In this document: in pieces, positions 17,732 to 56,690 of the stretch
Layout: each line of letters begins with the position of its first letter
Numbering within the stretch: the stretch's first letter is position 1
DNA from: Mytilus trossulus
Lineage: Eukaryota
Direction of reading: 5' to 3'
Length of the DNA: 64,000 nucleotides
Assembly: GCF_036588685.1 (NCBI RefSeq)
Contig: NC_086385.1
Location: forward strand, 9,176,001 to 9,240,000
Notes under the pieces: model-generated
The model's database searches: none
What the model was told of the DNA's origin: nothing
Seen by the model: the letters and a program-made list of their open reading frames with translations, nothing else
Position numbers and translations under genes: made by a program

Positions 17732-18140
17732 TACAACTGTGATCTAAATATCTGCAAATATTCTTTTAATGAACCCCTTTTATTTATTGCTTGTCAGGAG
17801 GGTCATATTCAAATTGTAAAATTATTATTGGAATGCAATAGTAATATGACACTTGATGACAAGGAAAACTTTGCATCCATAGCGATGATGAATGGTCATA
17901 CAGATATTGCGAAACTGGTGAAAGAACATGAATGAGGCTGTAATATATTTAAAATAGAAAAGAATAAGTTGTATCTACTACTAATAATAATGGTCATGTT
18001 GATACTGCAAAATTGTTTCCAGTAGACAACTACAATCTGACAATTTGTAATTTAAAACAACATGAATCATCTTTATGCATTGCTTTGAGGGTGGACCATC
18101 CTGGTTTAATGAGACTATTGTTAAAACTTGAATTCCCTTA
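17732..18140 (+). pseudogene. Ankyrin repeats downstream of the premature stop (in frame to 17935, then decayed relics)
   Basis: After the TAA the same frame reads YNCDLNICKYSFNEPLLFIACQEGHIQIVKLLLECNSNMTLDDKENFASIAMMNGHTDIAKLVKEHE*. Further downstream another frame reads NGHVDTAKLFPVDNYNLTICNLKQHESSLCIALRVDHPGLMRLLLKLEFP*. Confidence 0.8.
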
Positions 18141-21000: not shown

Positions 21001-24000
21001 TAATACATTTTGCTGAAACAGTCCTCATTAACAAAATCGCATTTAAGCTTAAGACCATAAAACTCTGGTAAACCAACTCATTTGCGTGCGCGATTAATTT
21101 TGTGAAATTTTGAGAGTATTAATTGTATTAAACAAAGAGTTTCAAATGGTGAAATTAAGGTACTCCCTTTATAGACGCCATCAAGATTGTGTTGATCGTT
21201 ATGGAATAACCTATTCAGAGAGGATATTGGCTATGTTCTTTTAGTCGTAGCTACGTTCATCTTCCCTTTTTACGGATGTGACCTACCGAGTTAGACTATT
21301 TACCGTGTTTGAAAAAACATGAGTAAAACACGACGGATGCCATATGTAGAGCAGAATCTGCTTACCCTTCCGAGGAATCTCAGATCCCCGAAGTGTTTGG
21401 TTGGGTTCGTGTTGCTTAGTCCTTAGTTTCCTTTGTTGTGTCCTGTGTACTTTAATTTTTTTTTTGTCTTTTTTGGCCATGGTGTTGTCAGTGTTTTTTT
21501 CGATCTATGAGTTTGACTTTTTTACCATAACAATAATTTACGAATATGCAAGTTTTGATATTTCAACAGCACGAATAAATTAAAAAACTGCAAATTAAAA
21601 TCAAGGTTTAGAATTATAGACAAAAGAGGGACGAAAGATACCAAAAGGGACAGTCAAACTCATAAATCTAAAACAAACTGACAACGCCATGGCTAAAAAT
21701 GAAAAAGACAAACAGAAAAACAATAGTACACATGACACAACATAGAAAACTAAAGAATAAACAACACGAACCCCACCAAAAACTAGGTTTGATCTCAGGT
21801 GCTCCGGAAAGGTAAGCTGTTGTCTCTTTTTTTACATTTCTAGAATGTCTTCTAGTGAAGAGGCAAAAGAAGTACATATAATGCATCTTTACACCTCTTC
21901 TGGACAAAATTTACGGAAGATCAAAAAACCAAAATTTAATTTGCCGTCGAATATAAGCAGATTTTTGTTATTTTGAATGTCATTATTGAAGTTTACGGTA
22001 AATAAAATTTTAGAAAAGGAAGATACGTCCATTAGAAATGGCTGTTAAAAGTGTTCGTAACATTTTTCTTTGTGAATTCCTGTAACTCAATTTTGCTAAA
22101 CCAATCAGGTTACCCCTCCCCTCTAAACAAAAAATAGATTTTTAAGAAAAATAAACTGCATACAATTTCGTCAATGTTTATCTGGAATATGATAAATAAG
22201 GAACTCGTGTCTATCCAAACTTGTTTTTAAGCAACCAAACTGGATTTCTATGAAATAAAGTAATTTAGTTATCGGAAAGTTATCAGAATCATTAACTCTT
22301 GCGGTCCTCGAAAAAATCTCCTGGTCCAAAATATTATTACTATTGCAAAATTTAGATGGCTGAAACCTTTGGATCAACCTCATTTCAAAAACTTTTATTG
22401 TTTATGGATCTATGTGCAAGTATACAATGTATACCAGACGTTTGTCAGACTATGTTTTTTGTGTGTGTCACGTATTGATCTTTTGAGTTAATCTAATTGC
22501 AAATGATTTTTGAAGATTGTTGTTGAATTGTACTGTTATACCACTGTCGTAGCTTCGGGGAGGGCTGGGTGTACTGTTACATCACTGTCCAATTTAAGGG
22601 ATGGGTTGGGATCCCGCTAACATGTTTAAACCTCCACATTCTGTATGTCTTTACCTGTCCCAAGTCAGGATTGTCGTGGTTGTCGTTTGTTGCTATGTAC
22701 ATGTACGTTTCACATTTGTTGTTCATTTTTTTTTGTACATTAAAACAAGATTGGTTTACCATTGCAATTTAGGAGCCTTTTACAGCTGACTATGCAGTTT
22801 GAACTGTGTTAATCGTTGAAGGTCATCCAATGGTTATAGCTGTTTATTTCTGTGTAACTTGTTCTCCTGTATAGAGATGCCACTTTTCAGTTTTTATTTT
22901 AACCCTGTCCTATTGATTTATGTGATTGTCCCAAGTCTGGAACCTTTAGTTAAGTGTTTGTCGTTGGTCTCGACTCGTATTTGATATTTGTAAATTGTTT
23001 GGTTATGTATAATTAGAGCGGTTTTTTTTTTGTTAGTTTGAATTGCTTCACACTTTTAATGTCGAGCATTCTATAGAGGATGTTATATCATCTTGTTTTG
23101 TCATTTGTGTTGAAGGCCTTACAGTTGCCTAAATTGCTTACATTTTCTTCATATTTAAATTCCGGTGGATAATTGACTCATTGGCAATCATATCACATCT
23201 CTTAGTTACATACATGTACCTTGACTTTAAACTCGTGTTTTATAAAAATGAATGAAATATTTGTCACCGGGCGTAACAAATTATCAGCAAACAATCAATC
23301 AATTTAAATATGTGTTAAATGAAAACGTTTTGATATTTATTCATTTTTTTTGGGGGGGGGGGGGGGGGGTAGGAGGATTTTATATATGAATATTGTTCTC
23401 TGGTAAGATCTGAAAACGGCAAGATTAGATTAGATTAAAATGAATAATAATGCCCTTTTCCTTTCCCAATCCTCCATCTATATATTTGAACTGACCACCA
23501 CAGAATAGCCCAATAGTGTTGAAACTAGCGTTGAACACCAATCAATCTAAATCCTCACCTAAGATATCAAATAGCCATCCTTTAACTGCCATTTAGACTA
23601 AACGACGCCATTTTGCCTACACAGTGGCAACACTGGGCCAGCACCTCATTAAGCAGAACATTCTTTTTTGTTTTATATTATTCCATTTAGTAGTTCACTT
23701 AAAAAGTACGACGTGTATTTCCCATAGGGTCTCATATTAAACTATATATCTTTCTCTTGTTGCCATCATGGATTGATCGGCTTTAAAATAACAACTTCAG
23801 TGGTTTTCTAAAAGAAGACATGTGTATGTATTTTCAAATTGTCCGATGTTGAACGATGTCCTCGCTGGCGGCTATTTCATATGATGGATCGGCTACAAAG
23901 TAACAACATTTAATCAACACCTCATAAGGAATATTCATGTAATGTCTGGTTTCATTCCATTCATTGTTTCTAAAAACAAAAAAAAGACATGTGTCTGTAT

Positions 24001-24457
24001 TATCTCTAGAAGAAATTCAAAATGAATAAAATAACGACCACGACGGACGACGGACGTCAAGTAATGAGAAATCCTTCGGGTCAAGTTAGCTAAAAAGGGA
24101 GGTTTGTTTTTTTTGTTTGATTTTTTTTAAGATAATTAACATTACTAGTATAAGGAAGGAAGTAAACCTGGATTCAAAATATATATTTTTGGTCATCTGT
24201 TTTGCCTGATTAGTTTTATCCCAAGCATATTAAGGATAAAAAAATATTTTTCTAGAAAAAAAAACCATGAAGTCCCCTTCGACTTCGTCGGAAGAGTGTC
24301 TATAACCCCTCCCCCCTTTTTTGAAGTTCAGTGGTTGTTCCCGAATTATAAATTAAAATATTGAAATAATAATTGAAAATAAATGCCAAACCTTTGCTAT
24401 AAATCAAATACTGATAAATATAGCTGGTATATCGCAAAATCAATAGTTTCCTTATAT

Positions 24458-24768
24458 TCCCCGAGGGTATCACCAGCCCAGTAGTCAGCACTTCGGTGTT
24501 GACATGAATATCAATTATATGGTCCTTTTTATAAATTTTCTGTTTACAAAACTTTGAATTTTTCGAAAAACTAAGGTTTTTCTTACCCCAGGAGTAGATA
24601 ACCTTAGTCGTATTTCACAACTTTTTGGAATTTTGGATCCTCAATGCTCTTCAACTTTGTATTTATTTGGCCTTTTAACTATTTTGATCTGAGCGTCACT
24701 GATGAGTCTTATGTAGACGAAACGCGCGTCTGGCGTATGAAATTATAATCCTGGTACTTTTGATAACT
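24458..24768 (+). mobile_element. Retrozyme-like element, family A (near full unit)
   Basis: Near-identical to 31820-32134; contains the structured 5' motif, the C(UUCG)G hairpin and the intact hammerhead. Confidence 0.85.
24693..24736 (+). ncRNA. Minimal type I hammerhead ribozyme, intact core (family A)
   Basis: GCGTCA-CTGATGA-GTCT(TATGT)AGAC-GAA-ACGCGCGT-C^TGGCGT. Stem I GCGUCA/UGGCGU, CUGAUGA box, stem II, GAAA, short palindromic stem III, GUC cleavage after 24730. Confidence 0.9.
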
Positions 24769-25677
24769 TTTATTGTTTTAATCTGCATAACTCATATCTG
24801 CTCAAACCAAAATGATAAAACAAGTGAATGTCAAAATGATGTAATTGATTTTAACCTCATAAACCTATAAAATTGCCTAAGTATTCATTTAAAAAAATGT
24901 CTTGAAAATCTACAAAATTCATAGGTTTGTATAAAGGTTTTTCCTCAACAAACGTAAGAATCATATTTCATGAGATAATCATGTGAACTGGCTTATCTTA
25001 CCTCATTAACATGTCACTTTGATAGCTAAAGAGAAAAGTTTCGTAAATGACCTTAATTTTCTACTCTCACATATGTATTAGTAAACTTGCAACATGTATA
25101 TTCTTCTTATCACCTTTTTTCAATTTTGCCCCTATATCAATGTTATGCTATAATTAAGAATGAGGTAAAAGAAGGGGAATTGACTTGTAGCAATACAAGG
25201 GAAGTTAGTTTGAAAATTATTTGCAAAGAAACTAAAACAACATAACATTATAGTTTATATATAACTATATATACAAACACATATTCTACGTAAACAAATA
25301 ATTCTAAATTGTATAATATAATACATAACTTAATATACCATGATCATTTGCATGCATATTTTTTAATCCATTTAAATTTACTTAATTGTAAAATTGATAT
25401 ACATGTAATCAAACAATCAGTGATGGAGAAATTACAAGGTCGATGTCTCAAGAAATGTATAAATTATGAGTTCATAACATTCTGACAACCACCTATGATA
25501 CAGAAAGAAACTCGGTTAATTCTCATTGAAGATGGATAACCTTGAAACTTCCCAAATTCTAAAATGTGTAATAAATCACAAATTAAGGGTCAAAGCACTA
25601 AAAATGAAGGCGCGAAGTTTCTCTCACGTATTTTAACACAGTAATTACAAATAGGACGAACACGTCAACTGAAAATA

Positions 25678-25932
25678 ACTTTTTCGAGAATGGTTACTTT
25701 CCTAAGGGAATTAATGAAAAGGGGGGTATGTTTTCTTCCAATACTTTTTCGAGAATGTTACTTTACTTAGGAAATGAATAAATAAAGGGAGTATATTTTT
25801 TTCACATACTTTTTCGAGAATGTTATTTTACTTAGGGAATGAATGAAAAGGGGGGTATGTGTTGTTTCATTCTTTTTCGAGAATGTTACTTTACCTCGGG
25901 AATGAATGAAAGGGGGTATTTGTTTTCCCATA
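25678..25932. repeat. Minisatellite, ~64-bp unit, 4 copies
   Basis: CTTTTTCGAGAATGTTACTTTACTTAGGGAATGAATGAAAAGGGGGGTAT at ~25679, 25744, 25809 and 25873. Confidence 0.9.
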
Positions 25933-26059
25933 AAAAAGTAAGCTTTCAGAGAAAAAAATATATATTTTGAATTCTGATTTCCTCCATACCTTGGAAAAAA
26001 TAATTTGATTGATAGCGTTGAAGAAATGAATTTAGTTGTTAGTGTTTCCCTAAAATGCC

Positions 26060-26375
26060 TTTGCTGGTGGACTGGTAGTCCCTGAGGGTATCACTATCCC
26101 AGTAGCTAATATTTCGGTACTGGTATGAAATATGGATTTTTCGTTTTTATTTGAAATTTGCTGTTACAAAATTTTTGAAATAATTCAATATTAAAGAATA
26201 TACGTATCTCTCTGTTGCAAAGCTTTGATTCCTTGCCCGACTTTGGCTCTCTTTTTGTCCTTTTTGGTTGATAGCTTTTTTAGTAAGCTTTTGATTTTCA
26301 ATTATTTTGGCCTCGGTCATCACTGAAGAGACATTGATTGTCGAAATGCGCATCTGGAGACACATTTGTACCATT
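26060..26375 (+). mobile_element. Retrozyme-like element, family B
   Basis: Same layout as family A (GCTGGTGGAC..GTCCCTGAGGGTATCAC..CCCAGTAG..TTCGG, AT-rich spacer, hammerhead) but diverged primary sequence. Confidence 0.75.
26317..26360 (+). ncRNA. Minimal type I hammerhead ribozyme, intact core (family B)
   Basis: TCATCA-CTGAAGA-GACA(TTGAT)TGTC-GAA-ATGCGCAT-C^TGGAGA. CUGANGA and GAAA are intact, and stems II and III differ from family A by compensatory changes. One mismatch in stem I. Confidence 0.85.
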
Positions 26376-26591
26376 GACGTCTTGTAATGTTGTCAATTTA
26401 TGTTAAAATTAACACTGCCATTAGAGAGGGAGGTTTGGCTTGCCCCAAAACCAGGTTCAACCCCCCATTTATTTTCATAAAATGCCCTGTACAAAGTCAG
26501 GGAATTGGCCATTGTTACATTATAGTTCATTTCTGTGTGTGTTACATTTTTGTGTTGTGTCTCAGTAGTGTCGAAGTTCTCTTATATTTGA

Positions 26592-29500
26592 TCCCAAAGT
26601 AGCAGGTGGGTAAAGTTACGAAACTTTTTTTTGTGAGGTCCAAAGTTGGGGTCGGGTAACCCTACCACCCCCCTTATTTAATTCATAGCAAAGTCCCTAC
26701 GACAAAGCTTTTCTCTACACTAGGTACACTCTATAGGCAATTGACTGAGCTTGCCTGGACACAAAGATCCAGGTGGGCAAAGTTACCGAACTTTTTATAT
26801 TGAGGTCCAAGGGTGCGGTCGGCAAACCCTACCACCCCCTTAAATTGTTCAGCGCAAAGTTCCTACGGCAAAGCTTTTGTCCACACTCGATAGGCAATTG
26901 CCTAAGCTTGCATGGACCCAAAGTTTCAGGTGGTTAAGTTAAGGACTTTTGTTTTAGGTCCAAAGTTGGGGTCGGGTGACCCTTCCATCCCCCTGATTTA
27001 ATTCATAGCAAAGTCCCTAAGGCAAAGCTTTTGTCTACACTAGGTACACTCGATCGGCAATTGCCAAAGCTTACCTGGACCCAAAGTTTTAGGTGGGCAA
27101 AGTTACTGAACTTTTTTTTAGGTCCAAAGTTGAATTGGGGTGACCCTACCATCCCCCTTATTTAATTCATAGCAAAGTCATTACGGCAAAGCTTTTGTGC
27201 ACATCAGACACACTTGATAGGCAATTGCCTAAGCTTGCATGGACCCAAAGATCCAGGTGGGTAATGTTGAGGACTTTTGTTTTAGGTCCAAAGTTGGGGA
27301 TAGGTGACCCTACTTTCCCTCTTATTAATTTCATAGCAAAGTCCCTACGGCAAAACTTTTGTCCATACTGGGTATACCCGATAGGTAATTTCATCAGCTT
27401 GCCTTGACCCAAGGATCCAGGTGGGTAAAATTACCGAACTTTTATATTGAGGTCCAAAGTTGTGGTCGGTATACCCTACCATCCCCTTAAATAGTTCAGG
27501 ATAAAGTCCCTACGGCAAACCTTTGTCCACACTAGGTACACTCGATAGGCAATTGCCTAAGCTTTCATGGACCCAATTAAAGATCCAGGTAGGTAAAGTT
27601 AAGGACTTTTATTTTAGGTCCAACGTTGAGGTCGGATGACCCTTCCATCCCCCTGATTTACTTCATAGCAAATTCCCTAAGGCAAAGCTTTTGTCCACAC
27701 TAGGTACACTCAATAGGCAATTGCCTTAGCTTGCCTGGATCGAAAGACCAAGGTGGGCAAAGTTACGGAACTTTTTTTAGGTCCAAAGTTGGGGTCGGGT
27801 GACCCTACCATCCCCCTTATTTAATTCATAGCAAAGTCATTACGACAAAGCCTTTGTCCCCACGAGGTACACTCGATATGTAATTTCCTAAGCTTGCCTG
27901 GACCCAAAGACGCAGTTGGGTAAAGTTAAGGAACTTTTTGTTTTGAGGTTCAATTAAAGTTGAGCTTGGGTGACCCTACCATCCCCCTTATTTAATTCAT
28001 AGCAAAGTCATTACGGCAAAGCTTTTTTCCCCACGAGGTACACTCGATATGTAATTTCCTAAGCTTGCCTGGACCCAAAGACGCAGTTGGGTAAAGTTAA
28101 GGAACTTTTTGTTTTGAGGTTCAATTAAAGTTGAGCTTGGGTGACCCTACCATCCCCCTTATTTAATTCATAGCAAAGTCCCTACGGCAAAGCTTTTGTC
28201 CACACTAGATACACTCGATAGGCAATTGCCTTATCTTTCATGGACCCAAAGATCCAGTTGGGTAAAGTTAAGGACTTTTGTTTTAGGTCCAAAGTTGGGG
28301 TCGGGTAACCCTTCCACCCCTCTGATTTAATTCTTAGCAAAGTCTCTAAGGCAAAGCTTTTGTCCACACTAGGTACACTCGATAGGCAATTGCCAAAGTT
28401 TACCCGGACCCAAAGTTGTAGGTGGACAAAGTAACTTAACTTTTTTTAGGTCCAAAGTTGGGGTCGGGTAACCCTACCATCCCCCTTATTTTATTCATAG
28501 CAAAGTCATTACGGCAAAGCTTTTGTCCACACTAGGTACACTCGATAGGCAATTGCCTAAGCTTGCATGGACCCAAAGATCCAGGTGGGTAAAGTTGAGG
28601 ACTTTTGTTTTAGGTCCAAAGTTGGGGTCGGTAGACCCTTCCACCCCCCTGATTTAATTCTTTGCAAAGTCACTAAGGCAAAGCTTTTGTCCATACTAGG
28701 TACACTAGATAGGCAATTGCCGAAGCTTACCTGGTCCCAAAGTTTTAGGTGGACAAAGTAACTGAACTTTTTTTAGGTCCAAAGTTGGGGTTGGGTGACC
28801 CTTCCATCCCCTTTATTTAATTCATAGCAAAGTCATTACGACAAAGCTTTTGTCCATACAAGGTACACGCGAAAGGTAATTTCCTAAGCTTGCCTGGACC
28901 TAAAGATCCAGGTTGGTCAAGTTACCGAATTTTTTTATATTGAGGTCCAAAGTTGTGGTCGGCAGACCCTACCATCCCCTTGAAATAGTTTAGAGCAAAG
29001 TCCCTACGGCAGAGCTTTTGTCCACACTAGGTACACTCGATAGGCAATTGCCTAAGCTTTCATGGACCCAAAGATCCAGGTGGATAAAGTTAAGGACTTT
29101 TGTTTAAGGTACAAATTTGAGGTCGGGTGATCCTTCCATTTGCCTGATGTAATTCATAGCAAAGTCCCTAAGGCAAACCTTTGTCCACACTAGGTACACT
29201 CGATAGGCAATTGCCTAAGCTTTCATGGACCCAATTAAAGATCCAGGTAGGTAGAGTTAAGGACTTTTATTTTAGGTCCAAAGTTGAGGTCGGGTGACCC
29301 TTCCATCCCCCTGATTTAATTCATAGCAAATTCCCTAAGGCAAAGCTTTTGTCCACACTAGGTACACTCAATAGGCAATTGCCTTAGCTTGCCTGGACCG
29401 AAAGACCAAGGTGGGCAAAGTTACAGAACTTTTTTTAGGTCCAAAGTTGGGGTCGGGTGACCCTACCATCCCCCTTATTTAATTCATAGCAAAGTCATTA

Positions 29501-31328
29501 CGGCAAAGCTTTTTTCCCCACGAGGTACACTCGATATGTAATTTCCTAAGCTTGCCTGGACCCAAAGACGCAGTTGGGTAAAGTTAAGGAACTTTTTGTT
29601 TTGAGGTTCAATTAAAGTTGAGCTTGGGTGACCCTACCATCCCCCTTATTTAATTCATAGCAAAGTCCCTACGACAAAGCTTTTGTCCACACTAAATACA
29701 CTCGATAGGCAATTGCCTAATCTTTCATGGACCCAAAGATCCAGTTGGGTAAAGTTAAGGACTTTTTTTTTAGGTCCAAAGTTGGGGTCGGGTAACCCTT
29801 CCACCCCTCTGATTTAATTCTTAGCAAAGTCTCTAAGGCAAAGCTTTTGTCCACACTAGGTACACTCGATAGGCAATTGCCTAAGCTTGCATGGACCCAA
29901 AGATCCAGGTGGGTAAAGTTGAGGACTTTTGTTTTAGGTCCAAAGTTGGGGGTCGGTAGACCCTTCCACCCCCCTGATTTAATTCTTTGCAAAGTCACTA
30001 AGGCAAAGCTTTTGTCCATACTAGGTACACTAGATAGGCAATTGCCGAAGCTTACCTGGTCCCAAAGTTTTAGGTGGACAAAGTAACTGAACTTTTTTTA
30101 GGTCCAAAGTTGGGGTTGGGTGACCCTTCCATCCCCCTTATTTAATTCATAGCAAAGTCATTACGACAAAGCTTTTGTCCATACAAGGTACACTCGAAAG
30201 GTAATTTCCTAAGCTTGCCTGGACCTAAAGATCCAGGTTGGTAAAGTTACCGATTTTTTTTATATTGAGGTCCAAAGTTGTGGTCGGCAGACCCTACCAT
30301 CCCCTTGAAATAGTTTAGAGCAAAGTCCCTACGGCAGAGCTTTTGTCCACACTAGGTACACTCGATAGGCAATTGCATAAGCTTTCATGGACCCAAAGAT
30401 CCAGGTGGGTAAAGTTAAGGACTTTTGTTTAAGGTACAAATTTGAGGTCGGGTGATCCTTCCATTTGCCTGATGTAATTCATAGCAAATTCCCTAAGGCA
30501 AAGCTTTTGTCCACACTAGGTACGCTCGATAGGCAATTGCCTTAGCTTGCCTGGACTGAAAGACCCAGGTGGGCAAAGTTACGGAACTTTTTATTATGAG
30601 GTCCAAAGTTCAGGTCGGGTAACCCTACTATCCCCCTTATTTAATTCAAAGGAGAGTCCATACGGCAAAGCTTTTGTCCCCACTAAGTACACTCGATAGG
30701 TAATTTCCTAAGCTTGCCTGACCCCAAAGACGCAGTTTGGTAAAGTTACGGAACTTTTTGTTTTGAGGTACTAAGTTGAGCTTGGGTGACCCTACCTTCC
30801 CCCTTATTTAATTCATAGCAAAGTCCCTACGGCAAAGCTTTTCTCCACACTAGGTGCACTCGATAGTAAATTGCCTAAGCTTGCCCGGACCCCAAAATCC
30901 AGTTGAGTTAAGTAACGGAACTTTTTATTATGAGGTCCAAAGTTGGGGTCGGGTGACCCTACCATTCCCCTTATTTAATTCATAGCAAAGTCCCTACGGC
31001 AAAGCTTTTCTCCACACTACGTACACTCGATAGTCAATTGCCTAAGCTTGCCCGGACCCAAAAATCCAGTTGAGTTAAGTTATGGAACTTTTTATTATGA
31101 GGTCCAAAGCTGGGGTCGGGTGACCCTACCATTCCCCTTATTTAATTCATAGAATAGTCCCTACGGTAAAGCTTTGGATCATACTAGGTACACTCGATAG
31201 GCAATTCACTGGGCTAGCTTGACCCCAAAGATGCAGGTGGGTAAAGTAACGGAACTTTTTATATTGAGGTTCAAAGTTGTGCTCGGGTGACCTATCAACC
31301 CCTTTATTAATTCAAAGCAAAGTCCCTA
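26592..31328 (+). repeat. Satellite array, ~165-bp monomer, ~28-29 copies, with higher-order structure
   Basis: AGGTCCAAAGTTGGGGTCGGGTGACCCTACC...GCAAAGCTTTTGTCCACACTAGGTACACTCGATAGGCAATTGCC recurs at ~26637, 26803, 26957, 27121, 27285, 27450, 27617, 27779 and onward. Confidence 0.97.
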
Positions 31329-32655
31329 TCCCAACTTTGGACTTTGATCCGTAACTTTACTCACCTGTGTATTTAAGCCCAGGCAACCTTAGGCAAGTGT
31401 CTACCCTATGTACCTAGTGGGCAAAAATATTTGCCGTAGGGAAAATTTTATATTCGAATGAAGGGGATGGTAGTGTCACCCAACCCCAACTTTGGACCTA
31501 AAAAAGAGTTCCGTAACTTTACCCACCTGGGCATTTGGGCCTAGGCGCCCTTAGGCAAGTGTGTATCCTTTGTACCTAGTGGGCAAAAAAGCTTTGCCGT
31601 AGGGAAAATTTTATGAACGAAAGAAAAGGGATGGTAGAGTCGCCCTACCCCAACTTTGGACTTAAAAGAACAGTTCCGAAACTTTACCCGCCTGGGTATT
31701 TGGCCCAAGGCAACATTAGACAAGTGTCTTTCTTTTGTCTGGCGTATAAAATTATAATCCTGGTACTTTTGATTACTATTTACATCACTGGGTTGATGCC
31801 ACTGCTGGTGGACGTTTCGTCCCCGAGGGAATCACCAGCCCAGTAGTCAGCACTTCGGTGTTGACATGAATATCAATTATATGGTCATTTTTATAAAGTT
31901 TCTGTTTACAAAACTTTGATTTTTTTTGAAAAACTAAGGATTTTCTTACCCCAGGAGTAGATTACCTAAGCCGTATTTGGCACAACTTTTTGGAATTTTG
32001 AATCCTCAATGCTCTTCAACTTTGTATTTATTTGGCTTTTTAACGCTTTTGATCTGAGCGTCACTGATGAGTCTTTTGTAGACGATACGCGCGTCTGGCG
32101 TATAAAATTATAATCCTGGTACTTTTGATTACTATTTTGTACCTAGTGGGCAAAAAAAGCTTTGCCGTAAGGAAAATTTGATGAACGAAAGAAGAGGGAT
32201 AGTAGTGTCACCCTACCCCAACTTTGGACCTCAAAAAAACAGTTCCGAAACTTTACCCGCCTGGGTATTTGGGCCAAGGCATTCTTAGACAAGTGTCTAT
32301 CTTTTGTACCTAGTGGGCAAAAAAGGCTTTACCGTAAGGAAAATTTGATGAATGAAAGAAGGGGGTTGGTAGGGTCAGCCTATCCCAACTTTGGACCTAA
32401 AAAAAAAGTTCCGTAACTTTACCCACCTGGATGTTTAAGCCCAGGCAACCTTATGCAAGTGTCTATCCTTTGTACTTAGTGGGCAAATTAGCTTCGCCGT
32501 AGGGAAAATTTTATGAACGAAAGAAGAGGGGCGGTAAGGTCACCCTACCCCAACTTTGGATCTAAAAAAAGTTCCGTAACTTTACCAACCTTAGTATTTT
32601 GGCCCAGGCATCCTTAGGCAAGTGTCTTTTATTTGTACCTAGTGGGCATAAAAGC
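31324..32655 (-). repeat. Inverted block of the same satellite (~5-6 more diverged monomers), interrupted by a retrozyme
   Basis: CCCCAACTTTGGACCT...TTCCGTAACTTTACCCACCTGG...GTACCTAGTGGGCAAAAAAGCTTTGCCGTAGGG is the reverse complement of the upstream monomer. Confidence 0.93.
31739..32134 (+). mobile_element. Retrozyme-like element family A, 356-nt unit plus ~40-nt terminal redundancy, inserted in the satellite
   Basis: TGGCGTATAAAATTATAATCCTGGTACTTTTGATTACTA occurs at 31740 and 32096. Flanked by TTTTGT at 31733-31738 and 32135-32140. Hammerhead at 32058-32101 has GAAA changed to GATA. Confidence 0.9.
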
Positions 32656-33400
32656 TATATGTACGTACAAATGGAGAAGATGAAACTTTTATAAATCTTC
32701 GCTACGGAAATAGTCAGATTTATTTTGTTGAAAACTTTTTTGAAAATAATTTTCGATTTTTGTTTTGCTAATACTAAATCAATTTAAGGGATTTGTCCAA
32801 ATGCAATTACTTTTAGGTATACCCTTTCCCGCTTTTCATTCTAGGTGCAGCGTAACCGAGAGCGTAATGATTCATTGGCATTAACACTAAACAGATGAGG
32901 CTGTTACGATAACAAAAATTCAAAAAGTCGTTCAAACTTAGGTCACCGAAATACAAGGGAAGCTACGTCAGAGTACTGTATCTGTACATGCGTATACGAA
33001 TCAGGAAAAGTTTGTGACCGAGTCTTGTTCTTGTCCAACTTGGAAATTAATTAAACATATTTTGTTTTCGTTTCAAAAGGTAAAGAATTTGTTTATTTAT
33101 ATATAAAACATGTATAATTTTTATTTTCAAGTAAAGTGTAAATAATTATATAAACACTATTTAATTAGCAACATACAACGACATATAGTAATCAGATGCT
33201 CAAATTATATAACAACGAGCTGTATCAATTATTTGACGATACTATTTATCATATTAAAGCTAAAACAGTCAGGTTACAGAATTATCTACTAGTATTATAA
33301 ACTATTATATCCGGTTTTGATTTGGTCTTGAAAATAATTTTACAAGTTTGACATTTTTGATATATAATCATAGAAATAAATAGTGTACTGATTATCTTAA

Positions 33401-34374
33401 GGTTAAAAGAGCGCAATTATTCGTAATTCATTTTCCAAAGGGTACCACACTAGTGTTCCGCATTTTTTTTCTCGAAGATTACACAAACTAGAGAAAAACG
33501 TGTTGCAGTTCCTGTTACTAGAAATGCCAATGTTGCATTACAACCACAAAAAAAATATAGGGTCATGCGGCTCAAATTGACTTAAAATGCAATTGAAAAA
33601 AGATCGTCTCTTTTTTTCGCCGAATGAGAAAGGCACATTTTTAATAGCATATTTTAATGAAGACGTGCAGAAATTACACATATTTTCTAAACTTTGTATC
33701 ATATATGACAATGATTTTCGGCAATTTTTATACCTAATTGGATCAGCTTTCGATTAAATGTAATTCAAATCCTGTATTAACAAATCAGAAGCCGTATAGC
33801 ATAGACATGCTGGCATGTCAGTTTTAACTGCTAATAGTCTGTTGACAACTTGTTATTTATGTATTATTGTCATTTTGTTTATTTTCTATGGTTACATCTT
33901 CTGACATCAGACTCGGACTTCTCTTAAACTGAATTTTAATGTGCGTATTGTTATGCGTTTGCTTTCCTACATTGGTTAGATGTATAGGGGGAGGGTTGAG
34001 ATCTTACAAACATGTTTAACCCCGCCGCATTTTTGCGCCTGTCCCAAGTCAGGAGCCTCTGACCTTTGTTAGTCTTGTATTATTTTAATTTTAGTTTCTT
34101 GTGTACAAGTTTGAAATTAGTATGGCGTTCATTATCACTGAACTTGCATAAATTTGTTGAGGGGCCAGCTGAAGGACGCCTCCGCATGCGGTATATTCTC
34201 GCTACATTGAAGACCTGTTGGTGACCTTCTGCTGTTGTTTTTTTTTATTTGGTCGTGTTGTTGTCTCTTTGACACATCCCCATTTCCATTCTCAATTTTA
34301 CTATTCTGAGTACAATCTTAAGTTAAAAAAAACTTGCCGGTAAAATGTCAACAAATAATTGCGCTCTTGTAACC
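33401..34374. mobile_element. TTAA-flanked TIR element carrying a nested interspersed repeat (~33810-34300)
   Basis: TTAA|GGTTAAAAGAGCGCAATTATT ... AATAATTGCGCTCTTGTAACC|TTAA. The nested repeat is homologous to 6180-6655. Confidence 0.8.
33810..34300 (+). repeat. Second interspersed repeat family (another copy at 6180-6655)
   Basis: Shared CTGACAT..GACTCGGACTT, GGTTGAGATCT, GTCCCAAGTCAGGAGCCTCT and GTTGTTGTCTCT..GACACA..CCCATTT blocks. Confidence 0.8.
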
Positions 34375-35609
34375 TTAAATAAAATACTAGATTCGGTCGA
34401 ATCGTCATGTTTGAAAACACACAGAAAGACAAGCAAATGCAAAACTCAATTAAACAAATGTGCTCATATATACTTAAAAACTTTTCTTAACTCCGAGGCG
34501 GATTTAAGGGAGAGGAGCATCACCTCCACCTTCTTGAGATGCTTCGTATACTGTTGCATCATCCACACCTTTTACCTATTCAACTCCAAACATATTCTAG
34601 GAAGGTGAAACGCCTCCCTCCCCTCCCCTTTTCAAATCTCTTATCATACGGCTTTAATTATCTATTTCTTAACATATTAAAACTTTAAAAATATAAATAA
34701 TGTGTTTACTGGCAAACCACTAACAGCCAAATGATGCATACTCATAGTTAAAGGATACTTAAAATGATTAAATGAATGGAGATAAACAATCGTATTGAAA
34801 TATTCAAGATACTATAAAAAAAAAGAAGATGTGTTATGATTGCCAATGAGACAACTACCCACAAAAAGACCAAAATGACACAAACATTAACTACAGGTAC
34901 GGCCGTCAACAATGAGCAAAACCCATACCGCATAGTCAGCTAAACAAGGAGGTATTTTTTCTACTGCAGTGTAACAAACTCGCCTTTACCAATGACAAAT
35001 GAAATAGTTGTAGAACCCAATGATTAAACGATTTGTTTGGTAACATTATTTCGGAAAATAAAATTAAATAAAATCTCCTATGAACAATTTGTTTTTCTTC
35101 TTATCCGAATTCTGATAACGACTAAGACGACTTTATTTTTAAATTAAATATACAAGTCCTTATCCGAATTTGGATAAGGATCTTCACACTGCATACTAAA
35201 CTCTGTGCGTCATGTACTCTTCTTATCCGAATTCGGATAAGAACAGATATTATTCCTTGATAGTGTATTATGTATTCTATCCAAATTAGGATAACATTAG
35301 TTTCTCTCCTTATGTCTAAACGATGATACTTCAATTATTTATTATTATCATTGTCCTAACTACGATGATAAAATAACTACTGCTATTTTAACAGTTAAAT
35401 AATGCTTTATTTAAAAAAAAGAATTAGGTCTGAATACAGTTTTGTATTTAGTTCATCTTTTAAAAAGTGTTGCCTTCAAACATTCTTATTTCAGAAATCT
35501 CGCTTATCCGAAACACCCATTGACTTGAGCATATGGAAATGCTCAAAAGCAATTGGAAGCTGTTTTATGTTGTAATTGATTTAAATTTTCTATATGCAAA
35601 AGTATGAAT

Positions 35610-35805
35610 TATTCGAATTACTAATGGGTTTTTTCTGAAGTATATATTAGAATACATTTAATTGGTACATTTTTTGGCAATTGTAGGTCCCCAATGCTCT
35701 TATACATTCTACTTGTTCGGCTTTCTTACTATGTTTCATCTGAGCGAGACTGACGAGTCTTATGAAGAAGAAAGCCCGACTGACGTATCTAGTTATAAAC
35801 CTGCA
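35610..35805 (+). mobile_element. Degenerate family A retrozyme fragment (further remnants at 43320-43395 on - and 45975-46060 on +)
   Basis: CTGAGCGAGACTGACGAGTCTTATGAAGAAGAAAGCCCGACTGACGTA with the preceding CAATGCTCTT block. Confidence 0.65.
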
Positions 35806-37477
35806 ATAGACTTTATTAAAAAACGAATTTAATCCAGACATTTATTTCGAGCATTTGACCTATTTATTGAAATATAAATCTGAATTTTTATATATTAACT
35901 ACATTTTGGTTAAAAATATTTTTTAGTAATTCAATGTACATCGACATATTAGTACTTTTCTACCTGTAAAAGATATTGTCTTTTAGCTGAATTTGAACCA
36001 AAGTATCCTTACTAGTGAGGACAAGCACATACATGCAACATTTTATCAAATATAATCGATATTTTAGCGACAACAACTATTGAATGAACGAAATGACATC
36101 TTTTAGAGTTTTGCATTTGTAGATACATAACACCTGACAATAGTCAATATTTTATTTAGTTAGTCTGTCTTAAAGACCTTCTGTGATCCTTTTGTTGTCA
36201 AACAGCATATATAAATTTTAACGTAAACAAAAGTGTGTATTACAAAAAGGCGTCTGCTTATATAAAAAAAATATCGGAGGTTAAACATGCAACAAATTTG
36301 CTAAATATATTTTGAATTGTCTTTATTTTGAATAGTCTTTATTTTGACTTCAGCAGCCTTAACGTAAGATACATTTGTGACAAACTAAAAACATATCAGA
36401 TCGAATAAAAATAATATTGTATTTATTGAACAAATAAATGCATTGCAAGCAATTAGATTTTTTCAACCTATAATAATTTTAGGAAAAAATGATTTTCAGA
36501 TTGTTGTCTTACACGTTATTAGGAGCTTTCGATTAAGTATAAATTTAATTAGGGAATATATATCTCACGTATGAATAGCAATCATAACATATTTTTGTGT
36601 AACAACAAAGTTTTTTGTATTTTTCGGTAATTTAATGGGGTACCCAACACTGTACTTCACAAAAAGCCTGTGGTATAATTTTAATGTTTTTCTCTCATTT
36701 ATAAACTAGGCCAAGCTTAACATTTTGTATACATTTTAAAATATTTTAACCGTTGCTTTAAAAGTTTAGGCAACTCAAATATGACATCTTTTACTAATAT
36801 CGGCCAAATTTGGAAGTTTCAGAAACATGGGTATGAGGGTATATATATGTTGATTTTATCCTATTAATTCTATATTTACAATATCATACTAAATCATGAC
36901 CACTTAGGCAAACATCAGTACACTGAAAACCTTTACTTAATATCTTTTTTTATTCTAGATTTGAAAAAAAAATCCGAACTAAAGCAGAGGGTATCAAAGT
37001 CTGCCCCGAAAAGTGAATGCAATTATCATTTATAGAAGAAATTAAATTAAACAAAAATTATGTGAAGTTTCATTTTTTTTTTAAACTTATCATTTGGTTG
37101 TTCTTTAAATATTGTGTAAACAGAATTATCACAAGCTTCAGGTAAGATCACTTGCTCTTTTTTTCTTTCTTAGTAAAAACTCAGACAAAAATTGGTGTTA
37201 TAAATTACAAACAGCAGTATTCAGGAAGCCATTATTATACAACAAACAGTTGTTTTGATGTATATTTTTGTAAGATCATGTAACCTTCCATCGTTTCTCA
37301 TTTGCACTAAAGATTGTTCATTAGGTTAACAGATGTTCAACTATCATTTAGTATTTTTTATATATTTGTTTTCAAGTGACTATGCATGAGTTGCTTCAAA
37401 TAAGTTTTGTTTGTTTCGTATTCAAATGATAACATGGATAAAAAAAGACTTCCATTTAAAAGTGATGTTGTGATTAT

Positions 37478-37642
37478 TTATCAAAGGAACCAGGATTATA
37501 ATTGAATACGCCACATCAGTGAGGCTCATATCAAAAAATTTATAAAGCCAATATATTTGATATTTATGTCAACACCTAAGAGCTGACTACTGGGCTTGTG
37601 ATACCGTCGGGGACGAAATGTCCACCAACAGTTGCATCGACT
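37478..37642 (-). mobile_element. Family A retrozyme derivative with deleted hammerhead core
   Basis: Reverse complement contains the 5' structured motif and CTCACTGATG|TGGCGTATTCAATTATAATCCTGGTTCCTTTGATA. Located just upstream of lectin coding exon 1. Confidence 0.75.
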
Positions 37643-49663: not shown

Positions 49664-50031
49664 ATACACACTACACCTATCTCTTGTCACTTGAATGACA
49701 ATTTCTTCGTTATTCAATGCAATTTATGATTAACCTTTACACTGAAATATTACAATGTTTAGATTAACTAGAAATCAACAAGGTTTTTTTATAATAAAAA
49801 TGGAATTGTACATGCAGTCCGTATGTCCATGTGTTCCTATCTATAACAAAAATAAACTGGTCGCCAACGCGTAAAGGTATTTGTCTTTCCTGTTATATTT
49901 ATATATATATATTAGTATCGTTTTCAGTTCTTTAATTTCATAAATAGATTAAATAAAGTATTCATCTTAATGTAATCAATTCGATCATGAATTAAGTTTG
50001 TTATTGAAATGTATATTTTTTTTATTTATTT

Positions 50032-50245
50032 TTTGATAACTTTTTACACCACTTGGTCGATACCACTGCTGTTGGACGTTTCGTCCCCGAGGGTATCACC
50101 ACTCAGTAGTCAACACTTCGGTGTTGACATGAATATCATATATATTGGCTTTTTAACAAAACTTTGAATTTTTCTTTTAAACTGTGTTGATATGAGCGTC
50201 CCTGATGTGGCGTATTAAATTATAATCCTGGTTCCTTTGATAAAT
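50032..50245 (+). mobile_element. Family A retrozyme derivative with deleted hammerhead core
   Basis: Contains TGGACGTTTCGTCCCCGAGGGTATCACC and GTCAACACTTCGGTGTTGAC, then GAGCGTCCCTGATG|TGGCGTATT. Confidence 0.8.
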
Positions 50246-52675
50246 AATCACAACATCACTTATTACTCAATTTATTTCACTTGACTGGGCGGAGTTAAAC
50301 CGTTTCGCTCATAATAAACCATTCCATCTATAGGTAGGTGTTGTAGGATAAACTCACCAATGAAATGTCAAGTCATTCTTTTGTAAATTCCTTTTGTGGC
50401 ACTGATAGGTGATTAGAAATCAGTAATAATTATAACGGCAATCATCCTAATCACACACATCTTCAAATATACTGTCCTTATGCAAATCAAAACGTAAGCT
50501 CCGCCCGATCAGTTGTTCAATTATGTAAAAAAAAATAGGAAATGTTATAAAATTTTGGAGCAGATTTTCTTCGTCGTAAATAATTAAGATCGGGTTCAAC
50601 CTGAAGCAGTGATAATCATATAAGTGTCAAAAAGGGACAAATAAATCCCTACACGAATGATTATACAATTATTCAAACCTTGCTTGACATTGCGGACCAG
50701 ATGCACCGAGTGGTATTGTTTATAAACTAAAATTATGGAAATAAAGTGTTTCTGAAAATGTCATTTTTATCCTTTTTCTGCATTAACTGCATTTTGTCAT
50801 GCTTTCTCCAGATCTTAAATAAAAAGATGTATGTCACTGTGCTGGATTTCATGATAAGCGCAATTTATTCTTAAAAACCTCAACGTTGGCGCAAAAGTAC
50901 ACGACGTCGCTGGCAGACTATTTCTCTGCAAATTACCGGCGACATTTTTCAGATGTATAAATTTTGCTTGTAAAGAGCTTCCTATAAATTGAAAATATTG
51001 TTTTCGGAAATAAAATCATCTGAATCATGAATACCTCTCTCAATTTGTGGTCGAAGTGAGAAACATCTCAAGAAAAAGTTATTAAAGACTGTTGATAAAT
51101 TTATTTTGGATAAATTTAGATCTTGACAAACAGGTACATGTACTGTAAACACGCGTGTATTATTTTATATAAACCTCATGTTGACCTCTAAATGTTTTTG
51201 TTTTTGGTTTGTTTTGTTTTGTTTCGTGGGCTGCTGTTTCATTTCAATACTCCTTAAGATCTTGTTATTCATGTTTTAGAATTTCACATTTATTCATGAT
51301 ATTAAACTCTTATTCGGGTCAATGAATACAATTAAATACAATTTGGAAATTCCTTAACAGTTTTAAAGTTCTCTGGTAAACAGTTATTTCCACTGGATCA
51401 AAACATAAAGGTTATTGACACGAGGTCTTTTTCTGCAAAAAGAACTTATTTTTTTTACATAAATCAGGCTTCAGTTTTCTCGTTTGAATTGTTTTACACG
51501 AGGCCTTTCATAGCTGACTATGCGGTATGGTTTTTGCTCATTTTTAAAGACTGTACGTTGACCTGTAATTGTTTATTTCTGTGTCATTTTGTCTCTTGTG
51601 GAGAGTTGTCTTATAAAGGAGAATCTTCAATTTGCTCAATGAAGCGTTTTGTCCTGACAAGGAAACTATACCATAATTTTTAATTTTTGATTTGGCAAAA
51701 ACGGTTGAATTAATAGCGATAGGACTGGGCATATAACCTATATCCTCTCCCCAAGCTTTGGGTTTGTTTCTGTCCCTCTCCCAACTTTCCACACTTTACC
51801 CACTTAAATTACGATTTCAAAGCAGGTTACTTTTATAATCTTGTACTATTGTTTGAAAATAGTGTTACTCACAGATTATTTCATATCCCTTTTAGGTGTT
51901 TGAAATTCATTTACCTCAATATAAAATTACCGGGAACTTGCATTTTACATAATGGCATTAGACAATACAAGTACCTTTTGAATATTGAGTGCCATTCCTT
52001 GTACAAATCAGAAGTATTTAGTTATAAAAGGTAGGAAAAACCCGCCGACATAATCATACTACTTTGAACTTTCCCTCAATATAAGTTAGAAATGGCTAGT
52101 TGTTTGTTTTAAGTGTGTCTGGAAATCGAAGAAATTTCTACACAAATTTTGGAAAATTCACATTACGGAGTTAGGTTCCTTCCATTCTTAATTGCTTGTT
52201 ATATCTTGAAATATCTCAACGAAAAAGGACACGAATGTTATATTCGTTGCATCATTATACATATTTCACTTTACAAAATGTTAATTTTAGCTGGTTTTTC
52301 TCCGTCATGTTTTACAAATGACTGACTGTCACTTACTTGTTTTCAGTCCCAAAAAAGTGTCAGAAATTATATATTAAAATGGATATCCATAAATGATCCA
52401 TTTAGTAACGACAACTTGTGTGTTTCAAGTAAGAGTAACATTTACTTTTATATTATCATCAATACCGATTACTTTCCTTTGTTGTCAGTGGTATGTACAT
52501 GAAATGATATTGATTTGACATGTATTTGATAGAGGATACTTAAATGACCAATAGAGTCTCTTGGAAGATTATTTGCCTCAGAAACAAGTTTCAAATTATC
52601 TGGTTTAAGAAATAAATGATCTTTTTCTTACATATGTTACAATATAAAATACTCTAACATATTTTTTGCCTTTAA

Positions 52676-55916: not shown

Positions 55917-56043
55917 TTAAGTGTTTTGATATTTGATTTATTTTTTTTCAGTTTTTTCCATAACACAAGGAGATATGGTAGCATTGTCTATTAGATAACT
56001 ATCCCTATAGTTCAAATGAAGATAATGAAAAAATATATATCTT

Positions 56044-56690
56044 ACGTCCCCGCGGGTATCACCAGCCCAGTTTTCTGCAATTATAATGTCATTTTTTACA
56101 AAGGTATTGTTTGCCAAAGTATGAATTATTCTAAATACTTAGACTTTCTTAACCCAGGCATAGATTACCGTAGCCGTATTTGGTCCAACTTTTTGAAATT
56201 TCAGGTCCTCAATGCTCTTCAATTCTTTACTTGTTTGGCTTTGTAATTATTTTTTATCCTGAGCGTCACTAATGAGTCTTAGGCAGACGAAACGCGCGTC
56301 TTGCGTATCATATTATAAGCCTGGTACTGTTGACAATTATTAACACCACTTGGTTTATGGCAATGCTGGAAGACGTTTCATTCACGATGATATCACCAAC
56401 TTAGTAGTCGGCACTTCGGTGTTTACACATGTTATGTGGTAATTGTTTGAAATTTTCTGATTGCAAAAGTATGAACTATTCGAAATACTAATGATTTTCT
56501 TATCTCGGGTATATATTAGAATACATTTTATTGGTACAACTTTTTGCAAGTGTAGGTCCACAATGCTCTTAAACATTCTACTTGTTTGGCTTTCTTACTA
56601 TTTTTCATCTGATCGAGACTGATTAGTCTTATGAAGAAGAAAAGCCCGTCTGACGTATCAAATTATAAGCCTGTTACCTTTGATAATTAC
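56044..56690 (+). mobile_element. Tandem dimer of degenerate family A retrozyme units
   Basis: Two hammerhead remnants with GTC sites at 56298-56300 and 56648-56650 (350 nt apart). The first has CTAATGA instead of CTGATGA; the second is more decayed. Confidence 0.8.

Follow-up and report, generated by a model that had tools for sequence, protein, structure and literature searches.

Sequence comparison identifies the structured motif beginning at position 31787 of the window, the whole 64,000-nucleotide stretch of Mytilus trossulus DNA analyzed here, as a hairpin that Naiad-type Penelope-like retrotransposons carry in their 5′ UTR and that mussel hammerhead retrozymes retain. Judging from its position and conservation, the hairpin probably binds the Naiad reverse transcriptase (RT) and sets an internal start of cDNA synthesis ~4–8 nt upstream of itself, and the retrozymes probably keep it to hijack this enzyme. 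The earlier note had described the motif in two retrozyme families and suggested a check on autonomous Penelope-like elements. The motif is not specific to retrozymes, as the same hairpin is present in the 5′ UTR of all three Naiad-type families among the autonomous Penelope-like elements checked. Among the four functions that the note had guessed, recruitment of an RT gained positional and comparative support, whereas a ligation element, a promoter, and a new ribozyme gained little.

The repeats in this 1.3-Gb genome fit the published description of mussel retrozymes as 350–390 bp repeats with two families of type I hammerheads (Cervera and de la Pena 2020, PMC7229834). The units are AT-rich, 350–356 bp long (within the 170–400 nt range of non-LTR retrozymes), and non-coding by inspection. 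In locus L010, the RF00163 hammerhead recurred every 355 bp, indicating one type I hammerhead per unit of a short tandem repeat. The hairpin core pattern gave 13,498 exact matches in the genome and none with the reversed control, and the genome contained additional retrozyme families with the hairpin besides families A and B. Identity between A and B reached 55 of 59 positions for the core, compared with 115 of 181 for the AT-rich body and 37 of 53 for the hammerhead region; outside the core the two families were only 53–71% alike. The motif thus survives within an otherwise diverged, AT-rich element, as the earlier note had stated. Long retrozyme arrays (15–50 or more units) were observed on contig C1 at 113122-143424 and 269561-288329, near one contig end. 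A metagenome scan yielded 75 loci, 21 of which were true motif copies in AT-rich contigs; 17 of these came from one other host and carried different hammerheads in the same layout. The other 54 had no flanking helices and were judged by eye to be chance matches. At two metagenome loci, L105 and L128, part of the hairpin formed a short tandem repeat of ~42 and 76 nt, respectively.

The features of the window copy and its relatives are collected in Table 1. The family A insertion is flanked on both sides by TTTTGT (31733-31738 and 32135-32140), a possible target duplication. In its hammerhead, GATA replaces GAAA (T at 32086), and the cleavage position lies after 32095. The ATG behind the UUCG-capped hairpin is likely a relic of a Naiad 5′ UTR, since in retrozymes it keeps the same CATGAA context as the start codon of Naiads, suggesting descent from such a region. 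The 164–171 bp satellite forms two opposite arrays with higher-order periods, 26603-31328 (−) and 31339-32654 (+), and the retrozyme copy lies inside the second. A 99-bp repeat array, whose period is that of ankyrin repeats (33 codons), occupies 16160-17845.

Table 1. Positions of the retrozyme and Naiad features (window coordinates unless a locus is named).
Feature	Position	Strand	Remarks
Family A retrozyme insertion	31737..32137	+	One 356-bp unit plus ~45 bp, within the 164–171 bp satellite array
AC-rich linker	31782..31786	+	Between the putative reverse-transcription start (T-run ending near 31781) and the hairpin; position from end mapping, role putative
Naiad hairpin	31787..31844	+	58 nt, bulged; P1, internal loop, P2, conserved core; based on covariation, folds, and presence in Naiads
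Outer helix P1	31787-31792 with 31839-31844	+	Part of the Naiad hairpin
Helix P2	31795-31800 with 31828-31833	+	A at 31830 in the window copy, T in most copies
Near-invariant core	31802..31827	+	2-bp stem, GC bulge, UGG/CCG, U bulge, GGA/UCC, variable cap 31813-31819
UUCG-capped hairpin	31846..31865	+	Covaries among retrozyme families; absent from Naiads
ATG in CATGAA context	31866..31868	+	Aligns with the Naiad start codon
Type I hammerhead	32058..32101	+	Rfam RF00163, 28.3 bits, E 0.0016, below the gathering score of 34
Spacer, hammerhead cut to element 3′ end	32096..32137	+	3′ end directly precedes the site at which the next hairpin would start
Second family A copy	24458..24771	+	5′-truncated inside the hairpin; intact hammerhead 24693-24736; ends ~9 nt before the hairpin position
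Decayed family B copy	26055..26360	+	Truncated inside the hairpin, then a Naiad 3′-end-like fragment
Family A copy, internally deleted	50031..50255	+	Hairpin at 50051-50129
Family A copy, internally deleted	37466..37641	−	Most of the hairpin kept
Degenerate retrozyme dimer	56042..56684	+	Hairpin remnants 56042-56082 and 56348-56427
Second Naiad domain	L173 ~6573-6610; L218 ~1672-1706; L226 ~4802-4836; L216 ~200-236		

The segment 31787-31866 folded at −38.6 kcal/mol, with a z-score of −4.56 on the + strand (0 of 200 shuffles as good) and −2.68 on the minus strand. All strings quoted in the earlier note are present in 31787-31865, in the family B copy at 26064-26125, and in the 50.1-kb copy. 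However, this family B copy is decayed and truncated, with the left arm of its outer helix missing; in intact copies of family B, the loop is different. From these strings, the note had built a 12-nt bulge and a multi-way junction closed by CTGGTG/CACCAG. Both are absent; the bases instead form a GATGCC/GGTATC helix (P2) and a bulged core. Covariation was analyzed on nine family representatives (six retrozymes and three Naiads), a small, related set in which the row of Naiad L216 is misaligned; the alignment first had eleven rows, from which Naiad 1 (with a misaligned inserted hairpin) and one decayed retrozyme were left out. The revised fold paired 96% of the cells and showed two-sided change in 13 of 30 pairs. 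None of 500 shuffles, a control that ignores relatedness, scored as high, and slid controls paired 35–48%. RNAalifold returned the revised fold unprompted. On the same representatives, the previously proposed fold paired 94% of the cells with two-sided change in 9 of 26 pairs, all nine in helices common to both folds.

Helix by helix, the proposed ACTGGG/CCCAGT stem (two-sided change in 3/6 pairs), the GACG/CGTC cap (2/4), and the terminal UUCG hairpin (4/8) held up, and a conserved, covarying RNA domain of the retrozymes, as the note had described, was borne out. The central CTGGTG/CACCAG helix (0/6, with 87% of cells paired) and the CC/GG hairpin (0/2) did not hold. In all five sequences tested, the revised fold was 7–15 kcal/mol more stable than the former one. 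It persisted in whole linear and circular monomers, and pair probability in whole monomers was 0.99 for the revised helix versus 0.0 for CTGGTG/CACCAG. It was also the minimum-energy fold in seven of the nine representatives, with local differences in Naiad 1 and L216. One P2 pair exchanges G-U, A-U, and G-C, which is compatible with the + strand only. Pairs of the core carry little covariation because the core is near-invariant. Published Naiad consensi add P2 changes by eye, namely GTATC/GATAC in oysters and GATATG/CATATC in a hemichordate. CTGGTG/CACCAG, which is partly complementary in several Naiads and broken in oyster Naiads, may form an alternative conformer.

Rfam gave no match to the motif at gathering level in the window and none at E ≤ 10 in 24000-36500 or in five related loci, in agreement with the earlier note, which could not assign it to a known class. 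A hammerhead in sense, antisense, or permuted form was rejected, as the CUGANGA, GAAA, and UH core strands are absent on the + strand. The minus-strand look-alike in family A is without stem I, and its GAAA strand is lost in family B and Naiads. HDV-like, twister, twister-sister, pistol, and hatchet ribozymes gave no Rfam match at E ≤ 10, and the covarying fold is unknotted rather than pseudoknotted. SECIS elements are 3′ UTR hairpins with an AUGA/GA quartet and an apical AA; the motif lies in a 5′ UTR, has no apical AA in most families, and showed no Rfam match. A CTCF-site reading was considered by eye and set aside.

Naiads were reached by a GIY-YIG search of the genome, which returned 30 loci, six with a weak motif match just upstream of the domain. 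Longer stretches revealed elements arranged in 4.28-kb tandems, with GIY-YIG at the N-terminus and an RT-type motif at the C-terminus of the protein, which is the Naiad layout (PMC8557442). A Naiad protein search found three families, with about 100, 65, and 56% identity over the query; family 1 matches the Naiad_Mgal/Mcor entries by eye. PF01541 (GIY-YIG) occupies residues 138-228 of 1011, N-terminal to the RT in one ORF. The RT was recognized only by a [Y]IDD-type motif near residue 850–900 and by likeness to Naiad_Mgal; the protein had no Pfam RT match, and the Naiad alignment had no PDB relative. The hairpin lies 10–18 nt upstream of the first ATG in 9 of 10 loci of family 1, 6 of 8 of family 2, 10 of 12 of family 3, and in the single outside Naiad, L216. 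It was found beside the ORF in none of 10 loci of canonical C-terminal GIY-YIG elements, by a regular expression that missed two retrozyme copies in L182. In Naiads and retrozymes alike, the hairpin lies on the sense strand. Compared with the Naiad 3 hairpin, identity is 87% for retrozyme A (63 nt) and 86% for retrozyme B (65 nt), and if retrozymes use the Naiad enzyme, family 3 would be their closest partner in the M. trossulus genome.

Published consensi extend this distribution. A clear hairpin, judged by eye in the first ~140 nt, heads 16 of 54 Naiads. Nine of these are from bivalves, three from corals, and one from a fish, and three are hemichordate families. The other 38 have no clear hairpin in that region, two of them (a ctenophore and a razor clam) being possible variants and the rest showing none, indicating that the hairpin is not universal. 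The string CTGGTGGA occurs at 23 places in the published consensus file, 14 of which are this motif. A pattern search for additional Naiad variants gave retrozyme-type caps among the 100 of 187 matches listed. L216 corresponds to contig FXLX01000049.1, which is filed under an uncultured SUP05 bacterium. A Naiad with 75% identity to family 1 fills all 4.3 kb of it, so that the contig is likely animal DNA in a bacterial assembly. Viral contigs contained no Naiad relatives, and all four pattern matches in them were chance hits in GC-rich DNA.

Units of Naiad families 1–3 contained no canonical hammerhead, and no CTGAnGA was found in the three Naiad 3′ UTR stretches scanned (only 468 nt for family 2). 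In 6 of 8 loci, the family 2 3′ UTR holds a decayed retrozyme-A-like piece, 71% identical over 271 nt (L217:5268-5775; same place in L218-L221 and L224). This piece ends at the standard retrozyme 3′ end, and its hammerhead is decayed or dead; an internal hairpin and hammerhead are deleted. Partial tandems or pLTRs with 5′ truncation were seen in the Naiad families. A second covarying RNA domain was observed 25–30 nt into the Naiad ORF, where an H-type pseudoknot whose loop is rich in A precedes a hairpin. Published consensi from oysters and pearl oysters show this domain too, and retrozymes are without it. It may complete the site bound by the protein, and the 5′ UTR hairpin would then supply only part of the signal.

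End mapping was then applied to 60 stretches of 10 kb at round coordinates (600 kb of unselected genome), using five natural references that span the boundary upstream of the hairpin. Of 90 alignments entering the interval −15 to +5, 81 ended there (A 21/29, B 2/3, Naiad1 18/18, Naiad2 13/13, Naiad3 27/27); the alignments were not de-duplicated across references, so that these counts are not fully independent. For Naiads alone, the figure was 58 of 58. By comparison, at most 12% of alignments ended in any one of the pooled 20-nt windows upstream. Among 88 ends between −30 and +10, 58 fell at −8 to −4, with the mode at −6, and base-level walks showed them spread over several bases (~−9 to −3) and ending in a T-run. 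Full-length Naiad 1 copies ended at the same boundary in 7 of 10 loci, the other three having their end outside the stretch. Naiad 5′ ends were spread, not fixed, and retrozyme 5′ ends showed no peak at the hammerhead cut. That cut lies at −47 (A) or −39 (B) relative to the hairpin; the genomic 3′ end of a retrozyme thus lies past the cut by this distance less the linker, internal to the processed RNA and not at one of its ends. In target-primed insertion, the 3′ end is copied first, and the boundary would therefore correspond to the start of reverse transcription.

A comparable arrangement has been reported for PAc, a Poseidon-clade Penelope-like element of the anole, in which reverse transcription starts internally at an AC-rich site, ~55–60 nt of RNA downstream of the start are needed, and an upstream hammerhead is dispensable for insertion (Frangieh et al. 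2024, PMC11167929). The elements analyzed here likewise combine a Penelope-like element, a putative internal AC-rich start, and a positioned RNA immediately downstream of the start, with genomic 3′ ends at −8 to −4 serving as proxy for the latter. Since the geometry matches that of PAc, we read the hairpin as a putative docking and positioning signal for the Naiad protein. PAc belongs to another clade, and its required RNA is part of the ORF (the first 172 nt), for which the part of the PAc paper covered here (PMC11167929) defines no conserved fold. In contrast, the mussel and Naiad hairpin lies in the 5′ UTR, covaries across phyla, and is common to a non-autonomous element.

We propose that the U-rich 3′ end of the element would come to lie directly before a hairpin, either in a Naiad transcript with tandem units or in retrozyme RNA that is circular or multimeric. 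The Naiad protein would dock on the bulged core, its GIY-YIG domain would nick AT-rich DNA, and the nick would prime synthesis on the U-run before the hairpin. Synthesis would proceed away from the hairpin, which would be copied only when the enzyme gets through the whole unit or once around the circle. Such a course would yield tandem arrays together with numerous short 3′ fragments in which the hairpin is missing. A retrozyme would then consist of a hammerhead for making circles and a start signal borrowed from Naiads. Several observations stand against the hairpin as a start signal. For Naiads alone, the boundary could be the head-to-tail junction of linear RNA; 38 of the 54 published Naiads are without a clear hairpin; the 5′ ends are unlinked to the hammerhead cut; and retrozymes are without the second Naiad domain. 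Moreover, template-switch chimeras, in which a retrozyme end is followed by a Naiad 3′ piece, gave no support: 2 of 33 were in sense in the unselected set versus 45 of 2,000 in the background, and of 80 in picked loci, 4 were in sense (a single composite family) and 6 in antisense.

A 548-bp repeat with a family-B-like hammerhead was observed at L179:381-1654 and 7826-8664, at L184:4393-4839, and also in L085, L086, and L089, adjoining canonical C-terminal GIY-YIG elements. It is antisense to the ORF in L179 and L184, and a regular expression found no hairpin core in its copies at these two loci. A hammerhead without the hairpin core suggests that hammerhead and start signal are separate modules, and this repeat is possibly a retrozyme served by a different helper.

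An internal promoter or 5′-end element, possibly acting as DNA, is an improbable alternative, in which transcripts would start at the motif and 3′ ends would abut it through head-to-tail joining. Penelope and Chlamys-3 promoters do lie in the pLTR or 5′ UTR (PMC8557442), the motif heads the published consensi, and the invariant core could be a factor-binding site. Retrozyme RNA is also abundant, with 7,018 of 8.7 million reads in one RNA run; these had mostly the first mate on the minus strand, indicating + strand RNA under the usual library type. Against transcription starting here, P1 and P2 vary in sequence yet keep their pairs, and the G-U pairs fit one strand. Retrozyme ends lying 39–47 nt past the hammerhead cut need a template that continues beyond the cut, and the end offers only a short T-run as a possible terminator. 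Furthermore, no heap of read starts or ends was found at the motif in that run, although ordinary RNA-seq is weak for starts and the hammerhead site shows no heap either. Among the listed sequencing runs holding this stretch, none is recorded as RNA.

Less probable still, in our view, is a new self-cleaving ribozyme, perhaps assisted by protein, that would cut a short distance (a few bases) on its own 5′ side and free unit-length RNA from tandem transcripts. In one subclade of Naiads, ranging from corals to fish, it would stand in for the hammerhead and provide an end for reverse transcription. It would account for the boundary directly, the core is bulged and highly conserved, and the HHR_core/half_core flag falls on 0 of 16 hairpin-bearing published Naiads versus 17 of 38 others, although these elements are related and not independent. 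However, the ends spread over ~−9 to −3 rather than marking one bond, read depth runs across the boundary (~1,050–1,270 on the main strand in the same RNA run) with no heap of ends, as is also the case at the hammerhead site, and the fold is an unknotted hairpin without an Rfam ribozyme match. Mussel retrozymes also accumulate as full circles, and a dimer transcript yields the full monomer by double hammerhead cleavage (PMC7229834), the hairpin being presumed in those clones. In our data, 546 retrozyme reads join back by 355, a signal that a tandem array would also give. Least probable is a role in Naiad mRNA translation or stability, with retrozymes keeping the hairpin for RNA stability, export, or by descent alone; the hairpin does lie 10–18 nt upstream of the Naiad start codon and retrozymes add a stable UUCG hairpin beside it, but non-coding retrozymes conserve it (55/59) better than the hammerhead region (37/53), and fixed 3′ ends are left unexplained.

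We favor the hairpin as a start signal for the Naiad RT. In SINE 3′ tails common with partner LINEs, the R2 3′ UTR, and hepadnavirus epsilon, a structured RNA tag recruits a specific RT, and a non-autonomous element of the SINE type borrows the tag of its LINE partner. LINE, SINE, and R2 tags lie inside the first-copied 3′ end, whereas the hairpin here lies downstream of the start and outside the first-copied segment, and would therefore work only on tandem or circular RNA. For metazoan retrozymes, Penelope-like elements have been proposed as helpers (PMC7229834, PMC7761336, 10.64898/2026.07.22.740005). The portion of the 2020 review covered here states that these repeats show no conserved motif revealing the helper (PMC7761336). 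A recent preprint derives animal retrozymes from Penelope-like pLTRs with Xenopus data (Li, Clavereau and Pollet 2026, bioRxiv 10.64898/2026.07.22.740005), so that the general link between retrozymes and Penelope-like elements is known; the text of that preprint covered here has 0 matches for mussel, bivalve, and mollusc terms and names no RNA element. In our case, the proposed helper clade is without a hammerhead, and the common part is a separate hairpin. Naiads were described with an N-terminal GIY-YIG, a C-terminal RT, a tandem or pLTR layout, and no canonical hammerhead (Craig et al. 2021, PMC8557442), as observed here; SECIS and hammerhead searches are described there, with no conserved 5′ hairpin or retrozyme link in the part of that paper considered. 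A description of the hairpin was not found in the literature searched, and subscription journals, Repbase notes, or supplements, including the fold drawings of PMC7229834, may hold one. New are the RNA element itself with its fold, its location at the putative start site, and the proposed partnership with Naiads.

As to the autonomous element that mobilizes animal retrozymes, the hairpin points to Naiads, which are the one clade without a hammerhead and hence not an obvious suspect as the helper. As a defined element with covariation, the hairpin is a candidate for the RNA signal by which a Penelope-like RT, an enzyme related to telomerase, would be positioned for internal initiation. This proposal is directly testable, since the tag is 58 nt long, intact ORFs exist in the genome that carries it, and an in vitro assay format is published. 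If the hairpin is the start signal of the Naiad enzyme, the helper that spreads these repeats would be named.
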